From positions 48,162 through 112,161 of the forward strand of contig JBGSMD010000015.1 in assembly GCA_041740355.1 (NCBI GenBank): DNA of 64,000 nucleotides, read 5' to 3'. Positions 4,255-42,672 of this stretch are shown here, one piece after another. The translations under genes were made by a program, and so were the position numbers. The notes beneath the pieces are model-generated. The model ran no database searches, was not told where the DNA came from, and saw nothing but the letters and a program-made list of their open reading frames with translations. The stretch comes from Bdellovibrionota bacterium. Lineage in GTDB: Bacteria; Bdellovibrionota_C; UBA2361; CALJRW01. Every line of letters begins with the position of its first letter. The stretch's first letter is position 1.

Positions 4255-5208
4255 TTAAATTTTATTATTCTCAATCGCCCAGCGATAGGATTCTTCTAAT
4301 CCAGCTTCTAATTCAATCTTTGGTTTCCAACCCAAATTACTAATTCGACTAATATCCAAAACCTTGCGTGGTGTTCCATCAGGTTTAGTTAAATCGAAGA
4401 CTACTTCTCCTTGATACCCAACCACCTTTTTTATTAACAATGCTAATTCTTTTATTTCAATATCAACGCCTGATCCAATATTAATAATAGAATGAAAGGC
4501 GGTATCAGGTATAAAGTTTTTAGTATCAGTTTTAAGTAACAAAATTAGCGCTTCAGCTAAATCATCAACATGTAAAAATTCACGCCGCGGAGCACCTGAA
4601 CCCCAAATTTCAACTTCGGGTAAATTATTAATCTTAGCATGATGTAAGCGATTTAATAAGCCTGGAATTACATGTGAATGTTCTGGGTGGTAATTATCTC
4701 CCGGTCCGTAAAGATTTGTTGGCATCACGGCAACAAAATCTTTTCCATACTGCAATCTAAATTTCTCGCAAAGTTTAAGTCCGGCGATCTTGGCAATTGC
4801 ATATCCTTCATTTGTCGGCTCTAGCGGGCCAGCTAAGAGACATTCCTCTTTTATCGGTTGCGGCGCATGTTTTGGATAAATACATGAGCTTCCTAAATAG
4901 ATTAATTTTTTAATATTAAATTCATGCGCAGCTTTGATCACATTCCCTGCGATCATCATGTTTTCATAGAGAAAGTCTGCTTGATACTGAGAATTATAAA
5001 GAATTCCGCCGACCTTGGCTGCTGCTAAAAATACATAATCTATCTGATTATTTGCAAAAAAGTCATTAACAGCCGATTGATTTATTAAATCTAATTCTTG
5101 ATGGGTACGCACTAGGAGATTATAGTCCCCTAGTCCCGTCAATCTTCTGATAAGTGCCGAGCCTACAAGGCCACGATGTCCAGTTACAAAAATTGTGGCA
5201 GTACTCAT
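4255..5208 (-). CDS. fcl: GDP-L-fucose synthase
   Basis: GHRGLVGSA, AAAKVGGI, LGSSCIYP, YAIAK, PDGTPRK motifs. Confidence 0.95.
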   Translation of the reverse strand: MSTATIFVTGHRGLVGSALIRRLTGLGDYNLLVRTHQELDLINQSAVNDFFANNQIDYVFLAAAKVGGILYNSQYQADFLYENMMIAGNVIKAAHEFNIKKLIYLGSSCIYPKHAPQPIKEECLLAGPLEPTNEGYAIAKIAGLKLCEKFRLQYGKDFVAVMPTNLYGPGDNYHPEHSHVIPGLLNRLHHAKINNLPEVEIWGSGAPRREFLHVDDLAEALILLLKTDTKNFIPDTAFHSIINIGSGVDIEIKELALLIKKVVGYQGEVVFDLTKPDGTPRKVLDISRISNLGWKPKIELEAGLEESYRWAIENNKI

Positions 5209-5460
5209 TGCTTAAATTGAAAAAAGATAAAAATAATTATTTTTCTGTTTGTGGTTATGACGAAGGGCGCAACTCACTTACTTAAAATCTTACTACTCAA
5301 GAATATAATATATACGATATTTATTGACGATAAAAGACTTTATTATACTTGTTTAGTTTCTGATATCTATTTGATACTAGGCGACATTGAAAAGTAACTT
5401 TATATAACTTGTCGCCTGCTATATGAAGCACAATGACTTAAGTGACAATTGGATCTTAAT

Positions 5461-6942
5461 TTAATAATTTATCGCCACATTCATGGATCTTTGATTATCA
5501 AAAAATTTTCTAAAATAGTTTTTATATTTTTTTAAAACATCAAATATATTGGAAATTAATATTCCTAGCAAAGTAAGATACAAAAAATCAATCTCGAAAC
5601 GATAGCGATTAAAATCGTCTGTAGATACACCTGCTGTAATAACTGTAACGTATAAAATATTAAAAATTATGAAGCATAAAGTCAGCCAACAAATCAGATT
5701 ATGGGGATCTTTTATATAAACATATAATGCTTTGATACTTCCAAATATGATTAATATGGGTAGGCCAAAAAGCAATGCCCAAGAAATATCTGAGGAGTCT
5801 GCTTTAAGTAGAAATAAACGATCATAGTGATCTGATAATATGCTAACAAAATTATTTTCATTAGCCTTTCTTGCATGAAAATCCTTACTAGCAGGATAAA
5901 AGTATTTTTTTGTTATTATGAAGCTCTTAAGATAAGCCATTGGGTAGTGTTTCATTACCTCAAAAAACCCATCCATAAATGAATCAGAAATTTCTAAATA
6001 TCCTAGATGATTAAAATTTTTTTTGCCCGTGCTTTTAAACTCTTGGTCTAAAGCCGGGATACCAGTTTTAGTTAGTAACATTTCGCTTGAATATCTTGAT
6101 ATCTCATAATGAGGGCTGTGAAAAAAAAATGAAGGCAAAACATTCAACTTCGATAAATTATCGCGCTCCTCTTTCGATAAAAATTTAACTACCCTAGATG
6201 GGATATTACGTCCTAGATATGAAGTGCTTGGATGTATCTTATCAAAAATGACATATTGTTTGATCGAATATAGCGTTAATATAATAAATGGCAGAATAAA
6301 TGTCTGTAAAATTATCTTTCGATCGTTCTTACACAATACTAGGAGAACTAAAAAGAAAAAACATAATATTTCCACTCTAAATGTAGCTCGAGTGAGAATT
6401 AATATTGTGAGCATAAAATAAAAGCCAAAAACATCTTTCCATTTTCTATATCTTAGAAAAACTACTAAATAGTATGCACTAGCACACAACAAAAAGGCAG
6501 CAGGATATGAATAAAAAAGCCAACTTTCATAGATTAATGTTGTTGGTGAAACAATAAAAATCACCGCCAAGCCAAGTGCTATATAGCGTTTAACGCCAAT
6601 TTGCTTCATCAACTGAAAAAGATAGAGTGAGAAAAATAGACCTAATAGGTGAAAGCTTAATTGGAAAGCAATAGCGTAATTGATGGGGAACAACTTTAAA
6701 ACTAATCCTAGGTAAAGATTAAATAAAGGAGGTTGCTGATGAAGGTAAAAGATACTGCGCAATAAATCTTCCCGTAAAAGTTTGGGGTCTAAATACTGCC
6801 AATAATAATCAATTGTTTGACTATCGAAATTAAGATTAAAGTAAATAGAATAGATAAACCGTGATAAAACAAAAATTAAAAAAATTAGAAACGTGTCTTT
6901 CTTTATTACCCTGTTATATGTCTGATGAAATAAAGTATGCAT
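5461..6942 (-). CDS. Polytopic membrane protein, probable GT-C-fold glycosyltransferase
   Basis: Many hydrophobic segments, HQQPPLFN first-loop motif, late RYRF motif. Confidence 0.6.
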   Translation of the reverse strand: MHTLFHQTYNRVIKKDTFLIFLIFVLSRFIYSIYFNLNFDSQTIDYYWQYLDPKLLREDLLRSIFYLHQQPPLFNLYLGLVLKLFPINYAIAFQLSFHLLGLFFSLYLFQLMKQIGVKRYIALGLAVIFIVSPTTLIYESWLFYSYPAAFLLCASAYYLVVFLRYRKWKDVFGFYFMLTILILTRATFRVEILCFFFLVLLVLCKNDRKIILQTFILPFIILTLYSIKQYVIFDKIHPSTSYLGRNIPSRVVKFLSKEERDNLSKLNVLPSFFFHSPHYEISRYSSEMLLTKTGIPALDQEFKSTGKKNFNHLGYLEISDSFMDGFFEVMKHYPMAYLKSFIITKKYFYPASKDFHARKANENNFVSILSDHYDRLFLLKADSSDISWALLFGLPILIIFGSIKALYVYIKDPHNLICWLTLCFIIFNILYVTVITAGVSTDDFNRYRFEIDFLYLTLLGILISNIFDVLKKYKNYFRKFFDNQRSMNVAINY

Positions 6943-20299: not shown

Positions 20300-20316
20300 C
20301 GCATTCCAAATGTTTT

Positions 20317-20389
<73 letters not shown>

Positions 20390-20471
20390 TTCGACTCGCG
20401 CAAAAGCGCTCGCTCATGGCAAGCCATGTTTACGAGGAGAATGCCCTGAGCGACCAAAGGGAGTCGAAGGG
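20390..20471. repeat. GC-rich REP-like imperfect palindrome directly after the tRNA
   Basis: TTCGACTC...GAGTCGAA and TCGCTCATGGCA...TGCCCTGAGCGA arms. Confidence 0.7.
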
Positions 20472-20481
20472 CAATATAAAT

Positions 20482-20748
20482 CTAACTATTCTTTAACCGC
20501 CTCAAATCTCCAACAATCAAAGCATCTTTTTTCTTCCTCGACCATCTTTTAAGTTGCGCTTCTCTCTTTAAGGCTTCTAACTTTGTAGAAAACATTTCAA
20601 CGTATACAACTTCCCAAGGTTTATAACGAAAGGTATGGTTTGACTTCCCAGAATTATGCTCCACCATCCTCCTTCGCAAATCTTTTGTTAATCCAACATA
20701 GATTTGAGACGGGTCTGAAATACTTCTTAAAATATAAACATAAGTCAC
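20482..20748 (-). CDS. Small GIY-YIG nuclease (UPF0213-like)
   Basis: YVYIL...YVGLT..L..R...HN.G and ALKREAQLKRWSRKKK. Confidence 0.9.
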   Translation of the reverse strand: MTYVYILRSISDPSQIYVGLTKDLRRRMVEHNSGKSNHTFRYKPWEVVYVEMFSTKLEALKREAQLKRWSRKKKDALIVGDLRRLKNS

Positions 20749-20878
20749 CTGAACTTATCGATGAAGAACAAGAATTGTTGTGTATTGTATAACCTTAGAT
20801 AATTTGTAAAGTTTCCCTACACTTTCTATAGATTCATTTAATAAAATTATCCTATAATATATCAAAAAGAGACTAGCA

Positions 20879-22435
20879 CTAAAGGGAAAAAGAGGTCAGC
20901 GGTTCGAACCCTCTTAGCTCCACTCTTACATTATTGTGATCTCCAAAACCCTGAAATACTTTATAACTTAAAGTAGTTAAGACGGTTCCAAATCCACTTT
21001 CTTTGCTAAAGGATAGTTTGTCAGCGAAAATTAATTTTAAGATTAATCTCTTTGCTTTGAAGTCTCCTTTTTCCCATATTTTATCAGGGTTCCCGATATA
21101 GTTTGCTATTTTCTTTAGTACGGTTCCAACATCTAATCTATTAGTATCGGTTACTTGCAAATCTGCTTCCAATTTAACTTTCTCATTATTTAAATCCAGT
21201 ATTTTCTTCTCATACATTGAGATTACAGTTGAATTTGAACAATTAGTCATTTGGTTAAAGATTAACTCTATCTTACAATCAAGCTCTTTTAGAGATTGTT
21301 CTTTAACCTTATTTTCTTTTGAGATTTCGACAATCTTTTTTTGCCACACCTCTTTCATTACTTCTTGTGCCAAGTCACAAATTCCCTTTTTTGGCTTTAG
21401 GAAGCTTAACAGTGAATAGAATTTCTCTTCTAATTCAAATCTTTTAATACTTTTACCATAAACAGTGCATTCTTTATTTCGACAATGATAATACGGATGT
21501 AAGCAATTTCTCCCCTTACTCCAACTAGCGGTCAAAGAAGTTCGACAACAGCTACAAGAAATAAAGCCTCTCAAGACAAAATCCTCATTAATATCTGCTC
21601 TCTTTGGTAAATGACTTTTTTGCTTTAGCTTTGCTTGGGCTTTGAAGAATATATTTGGTGACACAATGGCTTGATGTTCCCCTTTTTGCATTTTGATACC
21701 CCAATCAGGTTTATGGATAAATCCCGCATAAAGTGGATTGCTAAGCAATTTTCCAGTGAATTGATGATAGATAGTACCCTTGGAATTCTTGGGGAAATTA
21801 GGATTTTTAATTAAGAAATTTTGAACATCTGATATGCTTTCAAAGCGTCCAGAAACTAGTCCCTCAAAGGCCTCCTTGATTACATCGCTACTTGGTAGAA
21901 CTGGAACTATTATTTTATGTTTCTTCTCGTTTACAATCCTCTTATATCCTAATGGAATAGGAAGCACCCAATGACCTTGCTCCATTCTAGCCTGCATTCT
22001 ACTTTTAACTTGAATTGCATTCATCTCTCGTTGAAACTGAGCAATTATCACTTGTACACCTTCTGTGAGGTGGTTTATTGGCGTATCCTCAAGTTCTAAA
22101 GATACACTCTCTAGCCTACCACTAAATGAGACTATTATGTTTTTAAATTGATAGTGGAGTACGGTTCGCCTTGCAAGTCTACTAACATCATCTACGATTA
22201 CAACAACAGAAATTTTTTGCCTATGATAGGAAGCAATGCAGGATAATAGCTCTTGGAATCCCTTTCTTATCTCTGTTTTTCCAGAGACTGCTCCATCTCG
22301 AAAGACACCCACTACTTCATAATTTTTTGATTGTGCATATTTCCGACAACTCTGTTCTTGAGAACTAAGACCATTTCCTTCTTGGACTTGTTTTTGGCTC
22401 GAAACTCTACAATAAATTATCGCCTTTTGAATCAT
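20879..22435 (-). CDS. Large serine recombinase / integrase
   Basis: IYCRVSS catalytic motif, DDVSRLAR, recombinase domain, LRGFISCSCC...YYHC zinc ribbon, coiled coil. Confidence 0.93.
   Translation of the reverse strand: MIQKAIIYCRVSSQKQVQEGNGLSSQEQSCRKYAQSKNYEVVGVFRDGAVSGKTEIRKGFQELLSCIASYHRQKISVVVIVDDVSRLARRTVLHYQFKNIIVSFSGRLESVSLELEDTPINHLTEGVQVIIAQFQREMNAIQVKSRMQARMEQGHWVLPIPLGYKRIVNEKKHKIIVPVLPSSDVIKEAFEGLVSGRFESISDVQNFLIKNPNFPKNSKGTIYHQFTGKLLSNPLYAGFIHKPDWGIKMQKGEHQAIVSPNIFFKAQAKLKQKSHLPKRADINEDFVLRGFISCSCCRTSLTASWSKGRNCLHPYYHCRNKECTVYGKSIKRFELEEKFYSLLSFLKPKKGICDLAQEVMKEVWQKKIVEISKENKVKEQSLKELDCKIELIFNQMTNCSNSTVISMYEKKILDLNNEKVKLEADLQVTDTNRLDVGTVLKKIANYIGNPDKIWEKGDFKAKRLILKLIFADKLSFSKESGFGTVLTTLSYKVFQGFGDHNNVRVELRGFEPLTSFSL
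20890..20922 (+). repeat. Diverged copy of the tRNA-Ala 3' end (att-like)
   Basis: AAGAGGTCAGCGGTTCGAACCCTCTTAGCTCCA matches 20357-20389 at 29 of 33 positions, first 18 identical. Confidence 0.85.
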
Positions 22436-22571
22436 CGTCTCTATTCTCCGCCTTTAAGTTTGAAAAATAATCATCGATGATCTGTTCAGCAATAGTTTTT
22501 AATGAGCATACTAGTAATTCTAGTTCACTTTCATTAATACTTAAATTTTTACAATATTTTTCTTTATCCAA
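22407..22571 (-). CDS. Unlisted 54-aa ORF overlapping the recombinase start
   Basis: TTG start; MDKEKYCKNLSINESELELLVCSLKTIAEQIIDDYFSNLKAENRDDDSKGDNLL. Confidence 0.4.
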   Translation of the reverse strand: MDKEKYCKNLSINESELELLVCSLKTIAEQIIDDYFSNLKAENRDDDSKGDNLL

Positions 22572-22700
22572 AGCCACGACACTACGCCTTTAAAAGCAAT
22601 ATGCCTGACTTTGGTGCTTCCAATCATCAGTTATCTAAATACATTCATTACTAAATAATTTTCTTACTGTGGGATCTCCACTCATAAAAAAATCGTTCTA

Positions 22701-23537
22701 TTAAAATTTTTTTGTTTTAGTAACCTCTAAATAAGTTAATACTCCATCATTTAACTTACCTTCAAAACTACCGTGAGAAAAATTAGCAATTGTTTTGGCT
22801 AATTTTTGTAATTCTCTCAAATCTTTGGGCTTTTCTGTTGTCTTAATTTGAGCAATCTCTCCATTCTTTTTTACAATATTAATATCCTTTATCTTTGGAT
22901 CTCTTAGGTTTGCCAACAGTTCCATTTCAGATGCTTTCATTTTAACTGAGTACATTTCAGATTCTGTTTGTGGATAACTATTTATATCAAAGTATTGAGA
23001 AACAATATTTCGTAAATCTAGAAGGATAAATGAGGGCTGAGAATGAGTATTGAAAATGAAATAATAATTAGAAAGACAAGTACGAGAAATTGGCTGACAA
23101 TACCCATCAGAAAAAACTAATATGTAAACTGGCCTATTTAACATAGCCAGAGTCACAGTAGCTTCAAACTGGGGAAAATCTGTATTTCCATTTGGAGCAA
23201 TGTGCATACTTGAATAACTTCTCTGTAGCTTGCTTACTGATAGTCCATAAAGCCTTAACTCTGAAACTATATCAATCCAAAGAATATCCAACATTGTGAA
23301 TGTTCGCCAACCCTTGTCATTAGCACTTTTGTTATTGGCAATTATTCCACAATCTGCCCAACTTGATAGAACTCGTGCACTCTGTTTTGTACACTTTAAA
23401 TTTTTAGTTTTACTAGCAAGGATTGATTTGTTTTGTGAGTGACTAACCTTGGAGTAATAAATTTGAAGTGCATTCTCAAACTCCTCAGATATTGGAATGA
23501 AATTTGTTGGATATGAATATTGATTTATTTCGGCCAT
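22701..23537 (-). CDS. Hypothetical protein with MerR-like HTH region
   Basis: SARVLSSWADCGII...GWRTFTMLDI resembles a MerR-type winged HTH. Confidence 0.55.
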   Translation of the reverse strand: MAEINQYSYPTNFIPISEEFENALQIYYSKVSHSQNKSILASKTKNLKCTKQSARVLSSWADCGIIANNKSANDKGWRTFTMLDILWIDIVSELRLYGLSVSKLQRSYSSMHIAPNGNTDFPQFEATVTLAMLNRPVYILVFSDGYCQPISRTCLSNYYFIFNTHSQPSFILLDLRNIVSQYFDINSYPQTESEMYSVKMKASEMELLANLRDPKIKDINIVKKNGEIAQIKTTEKPKDLRELQKLAKTIANFSHGSFEGKLNDGVLTYLEVTKTKKF

Positions 23538-23605
23538 TCCCTTATATTACATACTAGTAATCATTTTGCAATGACTAGTTACTCATATGTAATAGTTTTA
23601 ATCAA

Positions 23606-23848
23606 CTATTTGTTTTTATTATATTTTTTTAGGTTATTAATTAATGTATTTGGGGAAAGGCCTAAGCATTCAGCTATTAGTATAAATTCAATCACATCTA
23701 ATCTTCTTTCCCCAGATTCAAATTTCGAGACATAGGACTGGGGTTTGTCTAACTTTTTGGCAAGCTGAGCCTGAGTAATACCCTTCGCCCTTCTTGATTC
23801 TGCGAGAAGAGTAATAAAGTTTTTGTATAGTTCCCTATGCTGTTGCAT
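23606..23848 (-). CDS. XRE-family HTH transcriptional regulator
   Basis: RRAKGITQAQLAKKLDKPQSYVSKFESGERRLD. Confidence 0.9.
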   Translation of the reverse strand: MQQHRELYKNFITLLAESRRAKGITQAQLAKKLDKPQSYVSKFESGERRLDVIEFILIAECLGLSPNTLINNLKKYNKNK

Positions 23849-23873
23849 AGAGAATTATTGACTCAATCACATT

Positions 23874-23908
23874 AATATCCCAAAATAGGATATTCTATTT
23901 TGGGATAT
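23874..23908. promoter_or_regulatory. Operator between divergent XRE and zinc-ribbon genes
   Basis: Perfect 14-bp inverted repeat ATATCCCAAAATAG-N6-CTATTTTGGGATAT. Confidence 0.7.
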
Positions 23909-23911
23909 AGT

Positions 23912-24418
23912 ATGTTTTGTTCTTCTTGTGGAAATAAACTTCTGGATAATAGCCAATTTTGTAGTAAATGTGGCACCGATCTACAGACTACTGATAAGCC
24001 AGAACCAAAGAAAAAGCTTCTTCAACAACCCCTTTCTGAGCTTAAAATGCATAAAGGATTAATTGTTGTTCTTGTTTTTGTAGTATTCTTTATTGTCTTT
24101 AAAGCCTGTTCTCCTGGACAACCAGTAGTAATTGATGAAAATACTAAGATTGAAAATGCTTGCAAAAAGAAAACAATTGAAGCCAAGGTAATGGCAGAAA
24201 GCTTTTTAAAAGATAAGCTTGTTTCTCCTAGTACGGCTGAATTTTCAGGGATTTTAGATACAAAGATTGCCCCAATCGAGGACTGCTCATACAAAGTTAT
24301 TGGATTTGTTGATTCTCAGAATAGTTTTGGTGGCCAAATCAGAAGCAGTTACATTGCCATTGTTCAATACAATTTAGAAAAAGATTCTTGGAACTTAAAA
24401 GATAGTTTGATCAAATAG
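23912..24418 (+). CDS. Zinc-ribbon, single-TM protein of mobile-element type
   Basis: MFCSSCG...FCSKCG, one TM helix, LVSPSTAEF and VDSQNSFG in the extracytoplasmic domain. Confidence 0.7.
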   Translation: MFCSSCGNKLLDNSQFCSKCGTDLQTTDKPEPKKKLLQQPLSELKMHKGLIVVLVFVVFFIVFKACSPGQPVVIDENTKIENACKKKTIEAKVMAESFLKDKLVSPSTAEFSGILDTKIAPIEDCSYKVIGFVDSQNSFGGQIRSSYIAIVQYNLEKDSWNLKDSLIK

Positions 24419-24419
24419 T

Positions 24420-24923
24420 TCAATGCAAATTACGAATTTTGATCGCTTCTTCTACGGCTGAGGAAAGATATTTTGCTATCCAATCATATCTTTCCTTACT
24501 AGTATAACCTTGAGGATCATAACATTTAACTACATCAGATAATTTTATTGGGCTTTTTCCACCATCAAAACTAAGGAGCTCAAAGGGATTTTCACCCTTA
24601 ACTGATACATTTCCTTGTTTATCTTTAAGCCCGTGTATGTGTATGCCAACTACACCCTTCTTTCTATGCCAAGATTTTTTTATCTCCTCAAGAACCCAAG
24701 GCCTTTGGGAAGTTTCTGAACCAATCAAAACGACAGTGCACGAACAGCCTAACATTTGATTATCAATCCAATTTGAGATGGAACTCTTGCCTCCTCTTTT
24801 TACCTCCTCCCAATCATTATCAAACAGGAGTGCACTTCTATCGACTGAGCCAATATTTCGAATCTGTGCCACTCTCCAATTATCGAGATTATAATGAAAA
24901 CTGTAAAAACATTTCCGCTTCAC
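24420..24923 (-). CDS. TIR-domain protein (ThsB / MTH538-like)
   Basis: KCFYSFHY..DNWR, SCTVVLIGSET..RPWVLEEI with the putative catalytic Glu; probable GTG start at 24923 after AGGAAG. Confidence 0.88.
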   Translation of the reverse strand: MKRKCFYSFHYNLDNWRVAQIRNIGSVDRSALLFDNDWEEVKRGGKSSISNWIDNQMLGCSCTVVLIGSETSQRPWVLEEIKKSWHRKKGVVGIHIHGLKDKQGNVSVKGENPFELLSFDGGKSPIKLSDVVKCYDPQGYTSKERYDWIAKYLSSAVEEAIKIRNLH

Positions 24924-24933
24924 GCCATTCTTC

Positions 24934-25326
24934 CTATGTACTAAATATAATTGCAATTAGACCAATGGACACAATCAAGATGCCGTGAAAGATCATTAAT
25001 GTCTTTGAGAAGATAGAAGCAAATAGATGAGTTTTTAAATCACTGGCATTCATACAAAAATCAATTTCATCGGGGTTCTTTGTTCTTACACGATTATAAT
25101 GTTTGCGATACGCCCGCTCTAATGAAAGGAAATAACCATCAAGCCCCCAAAAGACAATGGCAGGAATCAAGGCAAGTAATACAATTGAATTACTTGCACC
25201 CTTTTCCATTAATGCAATTAATGCCGAAATGATTACAACACTCCAACCTTTCAGTAAAAATGAATTGGTAGAAAGACGATTTACTACTCCTTGAATAAAT
25301 TCTAAATGTTTAATTTTACTATCCAT
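24934..25326 (-). CDS. Small 3-TM membrane protein, candidate effector
   Basis: KHLEFIQGVVNRLSTNSFLLKGWS, FWGLDGYFL.LER.YR, three hydrophobic stretches. Confidence 0.75.
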   Translation of the reverse strand: MDSKIKHLEFIQGVVNRLSTNSFLLKGWSVVIISALIALMEKGASNSIVLLALIPAIVFWGLDGYFLSLERAYRKHYNRVRTKNPDEIDFCMNASDLKTHLFASIFSKTLMIFHGILIVSIGLIAIIFST

Positions 25327-25328
25327 AG

Positions 25329-25853
25329 CTAGTACTCAGCATTTAAAATTTCAAGTATTTCCTCTTTTGTGAATTCCATCGCCGTATTTTTAAATTTATG
25401 TAATCTTCTGTAAGTATCAACCATTGCTTTATATTTTTCTCTCATCTCACTGTGACTATTTAAATCAACATTTGGAGTCTGGCCAAACAAAGCTTTGTAT
25501 TTCTTTTGAGTATTGATTACGAATTCGACAAAGCGGTAATGATCCGTCTCGTTATTACCATCATAACCTTGAAATTTTGCATTGTAATGTTTTGTTACTT
25601 CCTGATCAGCAGGATTCTCCCTAATATGATTGTCAATAACTTGAAATACTGTAAGTGTATCAAAAACCTCTTTAGAAACATCAAGGCTTAGGGTAGGTAA
25701 TAACTCATAACCAACTGATTCGTAATAGACCTCATACCCATCTGATAATATTTCAATATCTTGGTCATATTTTTCGGAATTCTTAGGATCTAGTGTTTTA
25801 AGAATTAAAAATTGGTTAATTAGTATTTTACGCTCTTGATCTGAATAGGACAT
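25329..25853 (-). CDS. yfbU: YfbU-family protein
   Basis: ERKILINQF.IL..LDP, GYE..Y, FQGYDGNNE, NSHSEM..KY..M match the YfbU family pattern. Confidence 0.8.
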   Translation of the reverse strand: MSYSDQERKILINQFLILKTLDPKNSEKYDQDIEILSDGYEVYYESVGYELLPTLSLDVSKEVFDTLTVFQVIDNHIRENPADQEVTKHYNAKFQGYDGNNETDHYRFVEFVINTQKKYKALFGQTPNVDLNSHSEMREKYKAMVDTYRRLHKFKNTAMEFTKEEILEILNAEY

Positions 25854-26104
25854 TTGATAATTTTTTAAAAAACAAAAGATGAATTTTTGAAGTAATCATC
25901 ATCTTGAACATTTTCAAGTCCTTCAAATCATTAATTTTAAGAATATTGTTAAAAGTTTTGAATTTAGTAAATTTTGATTACTATCGGAAACTAGCATTAG
26001 ATTAGATGTAGCGGTGTCAGGGCACTGACCTTAGAGATTTTACACCCCCCTCTCTTTAAATCTGGTAAATTAACTATTTAAATATAGAAAATCCTAGTTT
26101 ATTT

Positions 26105-27019
26105 TTGAATTTTTGGAGATTAATCATAATATTTGTGATAATCACTAGATTTGAATTTTTAAAAATCACCCCCGTACCCAACATTATGTGCTTCTTTACT
26201 CCAGTTACAACTATCTTATCTAACTCTGATTTAATCGAAATAATTGCCATATTTGTTGGAATTATTATCGTTATTTACCAAGTTGATAAGGGTTTTAAAG
26301 ACAACCGTACTCTCCAAAATCAACAGTTTCAAAAACAAATTCAAATTGATCTACATAAGATCCTAGGTGAGTTAATTTCCCTTTCCTCCAGTAGTTTATC
26401 TGAACTTAATGCCAAACTTTGGTTTCTACCTGTCAATATTAAGAAATATGCGAATGATATCAAGGGCAATCAAAATGCTTTATTGCCCGATTTAAGCCCA
26501 CATCAACTTAATGAACTTTATTATGAAGCAATCAGAACAACTAGCCGTGTTGCGGATCTACTTGATGGGCATCAACTTACTAACAGTGCATATCCTGTCT
26601 TTAAAAAAATAATTTATATCAAAATAGATGAGGTAAGAAAATTTTACGCTAAATATTCCTCTGCTATCTTTGACTTTCTTCCATTTGATAAGACTATAGC
26701 GACGCCCACTGGAGAACTTGAGTCCATCAAGATAGTAAAAAACCACGCTAACGAGGTGCAATGCGAAAACATTGAGAAATTAACTAATGAGTTTATCCAC
26801 CTAGTATTTGATTTACTAGGATACTTGTCGGATATTCAAATTGAATCACAAAATATTGCACTTGGTGACCTTTTTGATCAATCCAAACTTGAATCTAGAA
26901 TACCTAGTGACCCTTCGATATTAGTTCTCAAATCGGATCCTAAAACTTTACAGGAACTCAGTGACTATATAACTAAAGTCCAAGAAGAGCGAAAAGTAAA
27001 AAAGAACTCCCACACTTAA
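26105..27019 (+). CDS. Hypothetical protein with N-terminal TM helix
   Basis: Long ORF, hydrophobic IIAIFVGIIIVIY followed by helical domain; start uncertain. Confidence 0.6.
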   Translation: MNFWRLIIIFVIITRFEFLKITPVPNIMCFFTPVTTILSNSDLIEIIAIFVGIIIVIYQVDKGFKDNRTLQNQQFQKQIQIDLHKILGELISLSSSSLSELNAKLWFLPVNIKKYANDIKGNQNALLPDLSPHQLNELYYEAIRTTSRVADLLDGHQLTNSAYPVFKKIIYIKIDEVRKFYAKYSSAIFDFLPFDKTIATPTGELESIKIVKNHANEVQCENIEKLTNEFIHLVFDLLGYLSDIQIESQNIALGDLFDQSKLESRIPSDPSILVLKSDPKTLQELSDYITKVQEERKVKKNSHT

Positions 27020-28432: not shown

Positions 28433-31400
28433 TTACTTATTACTTATATGGTTATCCCACATATCTCTGACGAAAAATTCAATACCGTTACCGTCCCCTG
28501 AGTAGGGTCCATTTAAGTTTGGAGCAGGTCTATACTTTGGATAATACCTTTCGATAAAATATCTAAAATATGCCTCATGATTAACTTGGGCCCTTCCTCC
28601 CATCAATAAGATAGTTGCGACAGTTCCCGCGCCGCCTGCGCCATTAATAAATCTATAACCACTTCCACCTTCCCAAGCTGAAGAATTATCAGGATGTCCC
28701 GACCAACCATACTCCGGAAGTCCAATCATCTCATCAGTATATGGAACACGACCTGGAGATCGAGCAGTATCAACGTCTTTTTTACTTATGAAAAAATGAA
28801 AAGTTAGATCTTGAAATGGAGACCCATTTTTTGCCTTGTTGTTAAGATCTGAATCATTTAGCAATCTTCCAGCGATGAACAATGGAAGTAATCTTCCAAG
28901 ATTATGCCCACCATTAGGTGCCCAAACCATACCGTTTTGTAATAGTCCGTAGATGTCTATGCCCCACTGAACCATGTGAATAGCTAATTTTTCTTTTTGT
29001 TTATTAGATAAATTAGAGTTCAACATTAATCCAGCACCGCCCACTATCTGACCTACCTCACGCCCATAAGTTCGACGAGTATAACCACCAGACTTAGTTT
29101 CAGCCCATGCCGCTTTAAAGTTAGAATTAACATGCCCAGCCGCCACTTCAATCAATGGCCGTTTCGTTGCTTTCTCCAACCAAGACATTGAAGGTGCATT
29201 TGAGGGAACAGGAATAGTAAGGCTACGCAATGCTGAATAATGAAGTTCTGAAACTTTCCAATTAGGTTTTATAGTTTTATCAGAGCCTGCATATGGCGGA
29301 CGGAAACTACCAGCTGCTGGAGCAGAACCAAGAACTGTCAGAACAGCAGTTTCTTTAAACCAGGTCTTCTCTGCCTCTGGATCTAAGACATAGTTTCCAT
29401 CTTTATTTACATGACCTTTCCAAGTATGAGGATTATTCATGGTAGAATACACAGAACTTCCTGATGCTACTTTAATTGGTAACTGTAATGATATATTTTT
29501 GGTTAGATCATATTTTGGTAGATTTTCAGGATTTTTATCATCTCCATTCAGATAAAGTCCCTGAGTTTCTGCCGGCATAAAATTTATCATAGATCCATTG
29601 CTGTAGTTGACCCCACCATCTCCAGTTTTTGGATCAATGTTGGTTATTTTTACTTTATTCTCATTCACTCCCTGTATTGGAGTCACCCAGTAGTCACCGT
29701 TCGCGAAGCGTCCGCAAGGATAAGCTCTGTCAAAATACCATGTAATTCCGTACTGTGTAATTTTATCTGTAGTACCTGAGGGACAATAGTTCACTCCGCC
29801 ATCAGGCTCACAGAAATCAAATTGATAAGTGCCACTCCAGTTTGTAAAGTTACCATTACTACAGCTTCTAGTTTGCTGCTCTGATTGACATGACTGCCCA
29901 GTAGGAACCTCAGATGTCAGATTCATAATCCTTCTCTCAATTGTACCATTTGGCACAAGACCACATGATCCAACAGGAACTCTAGAAGCAGAACAGTTAG
30001 TGCTTGTTCCACCATCATTTCCATTACAGCTCCAAGAAACTGATTGTCCAGCCGCAGGAAAATTTACTGAGACTGGCGATGCTGTCCCTTTGGCACAGAA
30101 GTTTCCACTAAATTGATTTTCTGTAGTTAAATATACTTTAGCATTTGTTCCACACGCTCCATTAATGGCACTGTTTGCTTGAGCAGTAAAAGAAATCAAT
30201 GCCTGAGCACTGTAACTAGTGCCTACACTGTAATCAAAGCTACTTTTTTTTGCATGCACCCAAAATTCATATTTATGAGCATCTGTAATTGGAAACTTAA
30301 AGCTTGGACTTGAAGCTGAGTAATAAGTATCCCGAGATGTCGGATAGGCATCCACATAAACATAGTGTCCATTGGCACTGTAGCCATTATAAATAGCAGA
30401 CGGCTGTGTTAAATCTTTAACTCGGATTAAATATCCAGCGGCTCCCTCAACAGCCGACCATTTAATTTCTACTTTCTGATCAAGATCAGATTTGTATGAA
30501 AACGACTGAATCACAGGAGCGGCAATTCCTCCAGCAATACTAAAATTGGCTACTACCTCTTTGGTTCTGTTGACCTGAATCGAACAACTGAGCCCAGAGC
30601 AAGCTCCACCCCAACCTGAGAAAACCCAACCACTTGCGGGCTGAGCAATCAAGTTGACTGTAGTTGTCGAAGTAAAAGTTTCAGAACAATCAGCACCGCA
30701 ATTAATACCTGTCCCACTAACTGTTCCATTTCCCTGTTTCTTGATATTCAAGGTTAAATTAGTTCCATTACAACCTTCTGCATAATATCCATTGCAACTT
30801 GCCGGTGGAGTTGGAGTCGCAGGGGGTGGTAATGTTGGGGATGATGTAGGAGTTAAAGTTGGAGTCGGAGTTGGAGTTGGAGAAGCATGGGCGTCAAAAA
30901 TCACATCACTAACTTCGCTAAAGGTACTATTATCATTGCGATCATAAGTAGCTTTTCTAGCTCTGACCCAGAATCTATATTTTTTTGCGTCAGAAACGCT
31001 TAAATCGTAAGTAGTGTTTGTATAATTTTCTTCATATAGAAGATCTAGATCCTTGGCAGGATTAGTCTGATCAACAGCACCAATTAAATAACCGCTAGCT
31101 CCAGTTACATTTGCCCATTCAACCCTAATCTTTCCATTTACAATTCTAGTGTTTGGATTTTTAATATTTGGAGCAGCTAGCCGACCTGTTTGAGTAAAAT
31201 TAGCTACAACTGTCTTGTTAGAATTTAATATGATACTACAGCTATTACCACTACAATCTCCGCCCCAACCAGAAAATAGATATCCTTCACTGGCAAATGC
31301 ACTTAATACAACGCTCGTTCCCTTTACATAACTCTTGCTGCATTCAGTACCACAGCTAATCCCATTTCCACTTACTTTTCCAGATCCCTTTTTACTAACA

Positions 31401-32134
31401 GTGAGCTTATAGCTTAAAATATTGGTATCGGGTGTTGGTAGTGGCTTCACTGGCGATTCGGTATTTACCGAAGTATCTACGACTCTAAACTTAAAACTAA
31501 TCTCTCTACCAGGGAAACCTAAACCTTTATCCTTGGTGTATGGAGTTAATTTAATTTCATATTCTCCAATTGGTAATTTTCCGAGCACTACTTCATATGG
31601 AGACGCATCTAAGAGATAAACTCCTTTATTCAGTTCAATTTTTATACTACCAATCTTAATCGGATACTTAACTACTAACTTTAAATCATTGCGATTAACG
31701 GAAACCGAGGTCCCTTCGCTTAGCACTTTAATAATTTGACTATTAGCTACATCAACTAAACTGAAGATGCTTTCATTTTTATTTTCTGCTTCGACCTTAG
31801 CAGTTTTACATAATTGCTCTATTAAGTTCTTCTCTTTCTGAATCTTTTTGGCCTGCTTTACGTTGCCTTTGTTCTTTTGTATTTCAACTCTCTTGGTATA
31901 TTGTTTACTTAAAGAATTAAACACATATCCTATTTCTTTTTCTTGTAAATTTCCAAAATGGATTTTTTCATTAATTTCATAACAATCATAATTCTTATCT
32001 TTAAAAATGATTGAGTACGTTTCATTTAGGACTTTTTCGTTGCTAATTACATAGTCCCTGCTAGGTATGCCTATCATTGCAAAGACATAGACAAAAAATA
32101 GTATAGATAAGATTAATTTTCTTGAATTTTTCAA
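28433..32134 (-). CDS. Large secreted mosaic surface protein
   Basis: Signal-like N-terminus, two InlB-B-repeat-like domains (FSGWGG.C) each followed by an FN3-like domain, PT linker, Cys-rich modules, C-terminal domain starting ITWYFD...GRFANGDYWV. Confidence 0.75.
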   Translation of the reverse strand: MKNSRKLILSILFFVYVFAMIGIPSRDYVISNEKVLNETYSIIFKDKNYDCYEINEKIHFGNLQEKEIGYVFNSLSKQYTKRVEIQKNKGNVKQAKKIQKEKNLIEQLCKTAKVEAENKNESIFSLVDVANSQIIKVLSEGTSVSVNRNDLKLVVKYPIKIGSIKIELNKGVYLLDASPYEVVLGKLPIGEYEIKLTPYTKDKGLGFPGREISFKFRVVDTSVNTESPVKPLPTPDTNILSYKLTVSKKGSGKVSGNGISCGTECSKSYVKGTSVVLSAFASEGYLFSGWGGDCSGNSCSIILNSNKTVVANFTQTGRLAAPNIKNPNTRIVNGKIRVEWANVTGASGYLIGAVDQTNPAKDLDLLYEENYTNTTYDLSVSDAKKYRFWVRARKATYDRNDNSTFSEVSDVIFDAHASPTPTPTPTLTPTSSPTLPPPATPTPPASCNGYYAEGCNGTNLTLNIKKQGNGTVSGTGINCGADCSETFTSTTTVNLIAQPASGWVFSGWGGACSGLSCSIQVNRTKEVVANFSIAGGIAAPVIQSFSYKSDLDQKVEIKWSAVEGAAGYLIRVKDLTQPSAIYNGYSANGHYVYVDAYPTSRDTYYSASSPSFKFPITDAHKYEFWVHAKKSSFDYSVGTSYSAQALISFTAQANSAINGACGTNAKVYLTTENQFSGNFCAKGTASPVSVNFPAAGQSVSWSCNGNDGGTSTNCSASRVPVGSCGLVPNGTIERRIMNLTSEVPTGQSCQSEQQTRSCSNGNFTNWSGTYQFDFCEPDGGVNYCPSGTTDKITQYGITWYFDRAYPCGRFANGDYWVTPIQGVNENKVKITNIDPKTGDGGVNYSNGSMINFMPAETQGLYLNGDDKNPENLPKYDLTKNISLQLPIKVASGSSVYSTMNNPHTWKGHVNKDGNYVLDPEAEKTWFKETAVLTVLGSAPAAGSFRPPYAGSDKTIKPNWKVSELHYSALRSLTIPVPSNAPSMSWLEKATKRPLIEVAAGHVNSNFKAAWAETKSGGYTRRTYGREVGQIVGGAGLMLNSNLSNKQKEKLAIHMVQWGIDIYGLLQNGMVWAPNGGHNLGRLLPLFIAGRLLNDSDLNNKAKNGSPFQDLTFHFFISKKDVDTARSPGRVPYTDEMIGLPEYGWSGHPDNSSAWEGGSGYRFINGAGGAGTVATILLMGGRAQVNHEAYFRYFIERYYPKYRPAPNLNGPYSGDGNGIEFFVRDMWDNHISNK

Positions 32135-42397: not shown

Positions 42398-42445
42398 TAA
42401 TATACTAAAAACGATTAAAATTTACGGAGCTGCTTTGAAAAAACT

Positions 42446-42474
42446 TCCACCTGCGTAAAGCTTCGCCGGACAAG
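42446..42474 (+). repeat. 30-bp REP-like unit
   Basis: TCCACCTGCGTAAAGCTTCGCCGGACAAG resembles 15058-15087 and the reverse complement of 18667-18696. Confidence 0.55.
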
Positions 42475-42672
42475 TACTGCTTTTTTCGTACATCAGGTTT
42501 TAGTATATTTGTTTTCCCTAGTATTAAACCTAACTTTATAAGGGTTAATACCTTTGTGCCCCCCCTTGGGTCGCACCAAGTGCTTTGAACTTGATATAAT
42601 ATATTTTTCATATATCAATCCACACAAAGAAACTTCTACCATAAAATTTAGTTTCATCTTATAAGTACAATT

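Follow-up and report, generated by a model that had tools for sequence, protein, structure and literature searches.

The stretch of DNA analysed here (hereafter the window) comprises 64,000 nucleotides of contig JBGSMD010000015.1 from a Bdellovibrionota bacterium (assembly GCA_041740355.1). On its minus strand, from position 25853 to position 24420, it carries three co-oriented genes in this order: a yfbU gene, a gene for a small membrane protein and a gene for a TIR-domain protein. An earlier reading made from the letters and their open reading frames (the sequence-only reading) had proposed that the three genes form a candidate non-canonical anti-phage system related to Thoeris. Our comparisons suggest instead that a two-gene membrane protein–TIR cassette, already catalogued as the candidate system PDC-M50, lies next to a separate single-gene module. 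The three genes and the non-coding region upstream of them are as follows.

25854–26104, minus strand: AT-rich intergenic region 5' of yfbU; no other non-coding stretch of notable size precedes the trio
25329–25853, minus strand: yfbU, from ATG at 25853 to TAG at 25331–25329, encoding a YfbU-family protein of 174 amino acids (aa)
24934–25326, minus strand: membrane gene, from ATG at 25326 to TAG at 24936–24934, encoding a 130-aa protein (PADLOC PDC-M50A)
24420–24923, minus strand: TIR gene, from GTG at 24923 to TGA at 24422–24420, encoding a 167-aa protein (PADLOC ThsB1 / PDC-M50B)

The spacing is 2 bp between yfbU and the membrane gene (25328–25327) and 10 bp between the membrane gene and the TIR gene (24933–24924), where an AGGAAG sequence overlaps the membrane-gene stop codon. 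This arrangement, including the GTG start of the TIR gene, agrees with what the sequence-only reading had described. A longer open reading frame (ORF), beginning with TTG at 24956, was considered as an alternative TIR start, but the PADLOC models begin at residue 13 of this ORF and the GTG was therefore preferred. All three reading frames are intact, with the catalytic and family-invariant residues conserved, and, judged by homology, all three are genuine genes rather than chance ORFs. Their GC content ranges from 0.32 to 0.38 against 0.355 for the window, so none is an outlier. The intergenic region 25854–26104 is the presumed promoter region for the three genes. Promoter-like hexamers were located on the minus strand at 25962–25934 and 26109–26081; the total of 18 hexamers in the region lies inside chance (shuffle expectation 12.9 ± 4.2) and provides no evidence of function. 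A scan for promoters and terminators between the three genes revealed no clear internal site, with counts within chance. Among the DNA contigs of three runs from one study, a single contig of 6358 bases, from the run that is probably the source, covers window positions 20408–26765; as DNA, it says nothing on transcripts. A second run of the same study yielded low-depth pieces identical to the locus, and no variant without yfbU occurred among the three runs.

The TIR protein matched the Pfam family ThsB_TIR (PF08937) with an E-value of 6.4e-24. Its best PADLOC match was the ThsB1 model PDLC00433 (2.7e-64), and it also matched the PDC-M50B model PDLC04688 (1.4e-57), with residues 13–175 of the TTG ORF aligned to positions 2–159 of the 162-position profile. 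No NCBIfam family was found for this protein. The closest solved structure in the PDB is 8wcf (5.6e-34), an entry for which a literature search returned nothing relevant; B. cereus ThsB (9b7d/6lhy) was matched with 2.8e-20. The sequence-only reading had pointed to a retained WVxxEI glutamate, and this is E80 in the motif W76-V77-L78-E79-E80-I81 (numbered from the GTG); its counterpart in the alignment to the B. cereus ThsB structure is the Glu of WVRYEI. In an alignment of the window TIR with the 87 hits below an E-value of 1e-20, out of 128 phmmer hits, this position is Glu in 85 of the 88 sequences and a gap in the other three. We take the Glu of WVxxEI to be the catalytic residue. The TIR protein is the proposed phage sensor and producer of an NAD-derived signal.

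In the 130-aa protein, hydrophobic segments were located by the Kyte-Doolittle scale at residues 22–44, 43–64 and 105–130, and the AlphaFold2 (AF2) model contains helices at 3–41, 53–82 and 108–129, with a mean predicted local distance difference test score (pLDDT) of 85. Neither Pfam nor NCBIfam provided a family for this protein. It matched the PDC-M50A models PDLC04686 (3.2e-45), PDLC04685 (8e-43), PDLC04687 (3.2e-21) and PDLC04684 (3.6e-16), the first of these over residues 1–127 of the protein and positions 1–131 of the 134-position profile. A word-indexed search returned 2814 related proteins at E≤0.001 among 2851 candidates, and a full HMMER pass at the same threshold returned 4947 representatives of the family clustered at 50% identity. 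Comparison of 22 family sequences, the named ones from different phyla, showed 45 invariant columns. The protein has two conserved polar stretches, namely the N-terminal amphipathic helix (K/H/Q/R17/S22/K26) and a basic helix after the second span (E70-R71-x-Y-R74-x-x-Y77-x-x-V-R). A Foldseek search of the PDB with the AF2 monomer gave no match at E≤0.001; the best rows, at 0.66–0.8, were channel subunits and were not used. All 30 of the nearest clusters in the ESM Atlas were unnamed, and the nearest named family, RipA/8xMP at 0.85, was regarded as a lead only; a literature search on 8xMP found nothing relevant. The prediction of a four-copy homo-oligomer scored 0.27 against a mark of 0.42 and was counted neither for nor against self-association.

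The membrane gene (A) and the TIR gene (B) are neighbours on one strand, A first, with a 10-bp gap between them, which fits PDC-M50; gene adjacency is the usual requirement of a PADLOC system rule. Both proteins match their models over the full length, and we found no structural difference between the pair and PDC-M50. By these profile matches the pair is a member of the candidate system PDC-M50 of PADLOC-DB v2.0.0 and is already catalogued. The only departure from the catalogued layout is the yfbU gene, which PDC-M50 lacks and which in the window lies 2 bp upstream of the pair.

The conservation of the pair was surveyed in the loci of the best 80 of 170 relatives of the membrane protein in genomes (species representatives) and of the best 80 of 241 relatives in metagenomes. 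In the genomes, a ThsB-type TIR gene was the next gene downstream (+1) in 49 of the 80 loci; a TIR gene of either of two sequence clusters was adjacent in 53 and within three genes in 58. For 20 of the 22 loci left over, the genes on either side (40 in all) included five TIR_2, three ThsB_TIR and two SEFIR proteins, and one further genome locus carried a TIR-NB-ARC-WD40 gene. A TIR gene was present in 65 of the 80 metagenome loci; in 67 loci 450 bp or more of downstream sequence was available, and in 56 of these a TIR gene followed the membrane gene directly. The membrane gene always precedes the TIR gene, with near-overlapping spacing, and restriction-modification genes are frequent near the pair. 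PDC-M50A relatives were present in 11 of 124 genomes of the phylum; the window copy scores 150.9 bits, at the upper end of the TIR-linked branch, and the other copies of the phylum score 57.9–104 bits. Relatives of the membrane protein were further found in 144 plasmid records (42 from Klebsiella and 36 from Escherichia) and, among 62 pattern matches in viral contigs, on three contigs. Four plasmid contexts were opened, and three of them (K. pneumoniae pCuAs, Desulforapulum pHRM2a and a Ligilactobacillus plasmid) contained the two-gene cassette, annotated as a free-standing "hypothetical protein" followed by a "TIR domain-containing protein"; in the fourth, no TIR was listed in the gene table, which is itself incomplete. 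These comparisons indicate that the pair is a recurrent two-gene cassette across many phyla and plasmids.

The membrane gene is the constant member of these arrangements and partners several TIR families. The membrane module also occurs in fusions: P0146 and P0129, two representatives that are 48% identical, carry an N-terminal SLOG-cluster-2 domain (1.7e-15 in P0146), and P0268 carries an N-terminal 8xMP / RipA-type octameric membrane domain (PF24838, 1.6e-27). In one genome locus the membrane gene occurs together with TIR_2 and a SLOG-cluster-3 gene. The SLOG fold, which ThsA uses too, senses nucleotide ligands. The combination of the module with several TIR families and its fusion to SLOG are consistent with an output module responding to a diffusible ligand.

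Thoeris systems of types I, II and IV use a ThsB-type TIR with the conserved Glu, as found in the window, whose TIR is homologous to B. cereus ThsB. Their effectors are ThsA (SIR2-SLOG) in type I, a Macro-domain membrane protein in type II and a caspase-like protease in type IV. The sequence-only reading had seen none of these nearby, and the observation held when it was extended to the whole assembly (97.27% complete), in which we detected no Macro domain (PF01661; the control was positive in 8 of 14 genomes), no Peptidase_C14, the sole caspase proxy used, and no DUF2270. No SIR2 or SLOG domain was detected with Pfam among the 10 genes of the island, and thus no ThsA lies beside the window TIR. 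The single SIR2 domain of the genome (SIR2_2) is generic and lies on another contig (C51), and no ThsA model was among its 17 PADLOC matches. In a second, separate defence locus on that contig (C51:31903–33970), the 406-aa SIR2-domain gene immediately follows a gene resembling a type I restriction enzyme. Since the TIR is left without another candidate partner, the membrane protein is likely its effector. Such a role, already suggested in the sequence-only reading, is well supported by comparative genomics, namely by the conserved synteny, the association with several TIR families and the SLOG fusions.

A closer counterpart is provided by type V Thoeris. A preprint, in the part available to us, describes 29 putative Thoeris configurations, with types V–XI validated and 18 effector classes untested (bioRxiv 10.64898/2025.12.03.692087). 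According to the same part of the text, type V consists of a TIR and ThsF, a DUF2270 protein (PF10028) with three membrane helices that is activated by 3' cyclic ADP-ribose (3'cADPR); the model of ThsF is a ring-shaped homo-heptamer whose basic pockets lie between protomers, and types I and IV draw on the TIR cluster of type V as well (bioRxiv 10.64898/2025.12.03.692087). Like the window pair, type V is a two-gene operon of a TIR and a small protein with three membrane helices. As far as the preprint text goes, its TIR belongs to the group serving type I, which the best match of the window TIR to ThsB1 fits, and its presumed ligand pockets lie on a positively charged cytoplasmic face, as we likewise presume for PDC-M50A. 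A reading of the genes as an undescribed system is consequently not supported: the PADLOC search returned a catalogued candidate for the pair, and a TIR combined with a three-helix effector has already been validated as type V Thoeris.

The relationship between the membrane family and DUF2270 was examined at the sequence level. The motif after the second helix reads ER-x-YR-x-x-YD...VR in the window protein and EARRYRFYD...RVR in DUF2270, and the DUF2270 proteins aligned are ~210–310 aa long, compared with 130 aa in the window. With hmmscan, PF10028 did not match the window protein, and one of its 22 relatives was matched at an E-value of 0.15. Profile–profile comparison of the two families gave a probability of 4%, and 14.8% when larger alignments were used (268 versus 107 sequences). 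Searches with hidden Markov models (HMMs) of each family against the other gave weak reciprocal hits, the best being 2.9e-5 (268 sequences) and 1e-3 (107 sequences), and all of the weak matches fell on the same 52–53 columns, covering the first two helices and the ER-x-YR-x-x-YD...VR motif. These results would fit a short and remote side branch of ThsF as well as a family that is analogous to it; by the Pfam model the window protein lies outside DUF2270, and any kinship would be distant. The family may also be among the 29 effector classes of the preprint, which in its available part could be compared by text only.

Membrane partners also occur in two other groups of systems. SLATT effectors (ThsH of type VII Thoeris, and those of the cyclic oligonucleotide-based antiphage signalling system, CBASS) are likewise small membrane effectors that accompany nucleotide-signal enzymes and have SLOG-type fusions elsewhere, but they have two hydrophobic segments, whereas the window protein has three. 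Membership of the SLATT group was tried and rejected: NCBIfam, which presumably includes SLATT models, gave no match at E≤1, Pfam gave none at E≤0.01, and one of the 22 relatives matched SLATT_5 at 0.12. Among the E. coli systems TIR-I to TIR-IX, the text of the report mentions one new system with a transmembrane partner (PMC11350192).

The product of the first gene of the trio matched the Pfam family YfbU (PF03887) with 3e-35 over residues 1–172 of 174, the NCBIfam model NF003936 with 112 bits (cut-off 90) and, in the PDB, E. coli YfbU (4lr3/1wpb) with 2.5e-10; no PADLOC model matched it. Among the loci of the membrane protein–TIR pair, YfbU was found by phmmer in none of the 80 genome loci and, with an HMM built from six YfbU proteins, in none of the 80 genome and none of the 80 metagenome loci, 59 of the latter with at least 600 bp upstream. 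Within the phylum, YfbU is present in 1 of 124 genomes, which is the window's genome, and in another phylum it was found in 2 of 401 sampled genomes. With tblastn, YfbU genes were detected on 176 plasmids, 141 of them from Enterococcus; identity reached 36.8% at most, and the ten genera with the most hits did not include Lactococcus. Seven other YfbU contexts were inspected (four plasmids, two genomes of the other phylum and E. coli K-12), and neither a TIR nor PDC-M50A was found beside YfbU in any of them. The neighbours in the four plasmid contexts were insertion sequence (IS) elements, a recombinase, an Abi-family gene, a DUF2971 gene or a RES toxin pair; in the two chromosomal contexts of the other phylum the gene stood alone, among unrelated metabolic genes.

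A YfbU-domain protein that acts alone has been described. Kamadhenu, a single 180-aa YfbU-domain protein from the Lactococcus plasmid pUCCL624_130, is presented in the available portion of the report as a validated stand-alone antiphage system (PMC11381338), and it is described there as having an abortive-infection phenotype and as co-localised with other defence genes (PMC11381338; review PMC13064643). The window YfbU, at 174 aa, is similarly a single PF03887 protein on mobile DNA with defence genes; it differs in that it abuts another operon, and the two were compared by family, size and description only. On this comparison the window yfbU is best read as an adjacent Kamadhenu-type single-gene module that would be the first gene of the transcription unit. 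The sequence-only reading had considered YfbU as a sensor, a second effector or an adjacent stand-alone defence gene. The last of these gained ground from what is reported of Kamadhenu (PMC11381338), whereas the first two lost it, as the linkage of YfbU to the TIR–membrane protein pair does not recur in the neighbourhoods compared (0 of 160 pair loci and 0 of 7 other YfbU contexts). Of the outcomes that the sequence-only reading had named as refuting it, two thus apply at least in part, namely a match to a catalogued system and a YfbU linkage that does not recur.

The explanation that we favour, with a probability of about two in three, is that the cargo of the island includes two anti-phage modules that are adjacent but independent, one being a PDC-M50 Thoeris-like pair and the other a stand-alone yfbU. 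In this model, the ThsB-type TIR would sense infection and, via E80, turn NAD+ into a small signal derived from ADP-ribose (ADPR). As the TIR groups with ThsB1, the likeliest signal would be a cyclic ADPR isomer. Receptor and effector would be combined in the 130-aa membrane protein, with both conserved polar stretches placed in the cytoplasm, where they would bind the signal; this placement was derived from the hydrophobic segments and the positive-inside rule rather than from a topology predictor. Upon binding the signal, the membrane protein would oligomerise or open, and the resulting loss of membrane integrity would abort the infection. The yfbU gene would be a divergent Kamadhenu-type single-gene abortive-infection module, and the common transcript that is likely at this locus would reflect the packing of the island rather than a functional trio.

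The trio had been placed by the sequence-only reading in a recombinase island at a tRNA gene, and this location was confirmed by the presence of tRNA-Ala(GGC), of a serine recombinase and of a break in synteny with a genome of the same genus (G041). The features on this side of the trio are listed below.

20316–20390, plus strand: tRNA-Ala(GGC), identified by ARAGORN, the left edge of the variable island
20482–20748, minus strand: gene with a GIY-YIG nuclease domain (Pfam PF01541, 3.3e-21)
20879–22435, minus strand: large serine recombinase of 518 aa (Pfam Resolvase, 5.1e-23), the presumed island integrase
23606–23848, minus strand: XRE-type helix-turn-helix regulator of 80 aa (Pfam HTH_3, 2.3e-14), context only
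23900–24418, plus strand: zinc-ribbon protein of 172 aa with one hydrophobic helix (Pfam Zn_Ribbon_1, 1.6e-09), context only

The serine recombinase also showed matches below the cut-off to Recombinase (19.7 bits, cut-off 21.1) and Zn_ribbon_recom (22.4 bits, cut-off 25.3). DNA synteny with G041 (contig C7) ends at ~20389, at the tRNA. At the same tRNA, G041 has a related serine recombinase (C7:129108–130264; 67–79% DNA identity over parts) without the cargo of the window. The tRNA-Ala gene is a reused integration spot, with related recombinases and different cargo in the two genomes. The right border of the island was not found, as there was no direct repeat of the tRNA region of at least 14 bp and no synteny with G041 further right.

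The zinc-ribbon gene is convergent with the TIR gene, their stops being 1 bp apart, and its product had no PADLOC match. The 51-bp gap between the divergent XRE and zinc-ribbon genes contains an inverted repeat of 15 pairs (ATATCCCAAAATAGGATAT...) at 23875–23908, which looks like an operator for the XRE regulator. Two further ORFs of the island, 26105–27019 (304 aa, with a hydrophobic N-terminus) and 22701–23537 (278 aa), had no significant Pfam match and no NCBIfam or PADLOC match; for the 278-aa ORF, the Pfam matches were all below the cut-off. Further right, the minus strand carries at 28433–32134 an ORF of 1233 aa with a hydrophobic N-terminus and PTPTPTPT / PPPATPTPP linkers between repeated modules; its product, a large protein, is probably secreted or located at the cell surface. 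At ~42400–42600, roughly 100–200 bp match dozens of sites on many G041 contigs with 71–79% identity; this is a dispersed repeat of the lineage.

Several observations weigh against the interpretation of two independent modules. Gaps of 2 bp and 10 bp, together with the lack of a clear promoter or terminator within the trio, make a single transcript of all three genes probable in this genome, and a local functional link retains some, though small, probability. YfbU adjoins genes for small membrane proteins elsewhere as well: in E. coli K-12 yfbU is preceded, at a distance of 82 bp, by the membrane-protein gene yfbV (2412100–2413132), and on the Photobacterium damselae plasmid pPDD-Na-1-3 a gene for a 160-aa protein with a hydrophobic N-terminus overlaps the yfbU stop (4977–5980). 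The kinship of the window YfbU with Kamadhenu is, at the level of sequence, that of a common Pfam family; a word search returned one relative of the window protein, 39% identical over 45% of the query, and nothing closely related to it turned up in a scan of metagenomes. On the side of the pair, about 12 to 22 of the 80 genome loci are without a TIR neighbour, and nine genomes of one genus of the same phylum (G074–G107) contain divergent relatives of the membrane protein, matching the PADLOC model with E-values of 1e-15 to 1e-23, with no detectable TIR. PDC-M50 itself is a PADLOC candidate, and a literature search found no paper naming or testing it. Finally, it is from sequence comparison that we infer the functions of all three genes.

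The close packing of the genes is also what would be expected if they formed one defence system, with YfbU as phage sensor, regulator or second death effector. Such a system would agree with the common strand and the 2-bp and 10-bp gaps, with the lack of a terminator-like site between the genes, with the absence of the whole trio, as island cargo, from the genome of the same genus, and with the position of YfbU beside small membrane-protein genes in E. coli K-12 and on the Photobacterium plasmid; neither yfbV nor the Photobacterium 160-aa partner showed kinship to PDC-M50A in the scans done. Accessory genes are moreover mentioned for some Thoeris operons in the accessible part of the preprint (bioRxiv 10.64898/2025.12.03.692087). 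We nevertheless consider an integrated trio quite unlikely: YfbU was found in none of the 160 pair loci, none of the seven other YfbU contexts had a TIR or PDC-M50A beside it, the pair is annotated on plasmids as a free-standing cassette, and a YfbU-domain protein is reported to defend alone in Lactococcus (PMC11381338, available portion). It is likewise unlikely that the TIR itself is the effector and depletes NAD+, with the membrane protein serving as its anchor, as a sensor of envelope damage or as a TIR inhibitor. The conserved and presumably catalytic Glu would suit this role, and the constant position of the membrane gene before the TIR gene, with near-overlapping spacing, also suits a stoichiometric partner; many bacterial TIRs are NAD+-depleting effectors according to the available preprint text (bioRxiv 10.64898/2025.12.03.692087). 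This explanation is at odds with the association of the membrane module with several unrelated TIR families, with the SLOG fusions that have no TIR in the same protein and with the grouping of the window TIR with the signal-producing ThsB1 models.

We also asked whether the genes could be non-defensive here, as decaying or neutral island cargo or as housekeeping genes, and regard this as very unlikely. The reading frames are intact, the catalytic and invariant residues are conserved, the window membrane copy scores at the upper end of the TIR-linked branch (150.9 bits, versus 57.9–104 bits for the other copies of the phylum) and the genes lie in an integrase island at a tRNA. What speaks for such a view are the TIR-less relatives of the membrane protein in nine genomes and the two chromosomal YfbU genes of another phylum that lie among metabolic genes. 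In both of the TIR-less loci inspected, two of the nine, the membrane gene directly follows a DUF3617 gene and lies by a peptidase M3 or acyltransferase gene, contexts that are not those of defence; this branch of the membrane family is possibly non-defensive.

A more specific proposal concerns the membrane family itself. PDC-M50A may represent a Thoeris effector family of its own, outside DUF2270/ThsF, in which a protein of 130 aa combines the receptor for a TIR-made nucleotide with a membrane-breaching effector. We hold this proposal to be tentative, and on balance doubtful. Were it correct, the ligand site would be formed by the N-terminal amphipathic helix and the ER-x-YR-x-x-Y-x-x-VR helix, and PDC-M50A would possibly read a signal other than 3'cADPR. 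A transcript shared with a Kamadhenu-type YfbU gene may be peculiar to this genome.

With the preferred assignment of the locus to two modules, what had been proposed as a new three-gene system becomes two recognisable ones, and the chief claim of novelty is removed. The divergent YfbU of the window adds a remote member to a family with a reported single-gene defence system. The remaining interest lies in the membrane family, which is very large, unusually conserved for a membrane protein of 130 aa and represented by no model in either Pfam or NCBIfam. The family is linked with TIR enzymes in many phyla, occurs on clinically common enterobacterial plasmids and is named in the literature searched only as a PADLOC candidate. 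If PDC-M50A is indeed a receptor and pore of its own for a TIR-made signal, it would offer a minimal model for the gating of membrane effectors by nucleotides. Such a family would be among the smallest signal-gated immune effectors known and, with 4947 clusters at 50% identity, including those on Klebsiella and E. coli plasmids, also among the most widespread.

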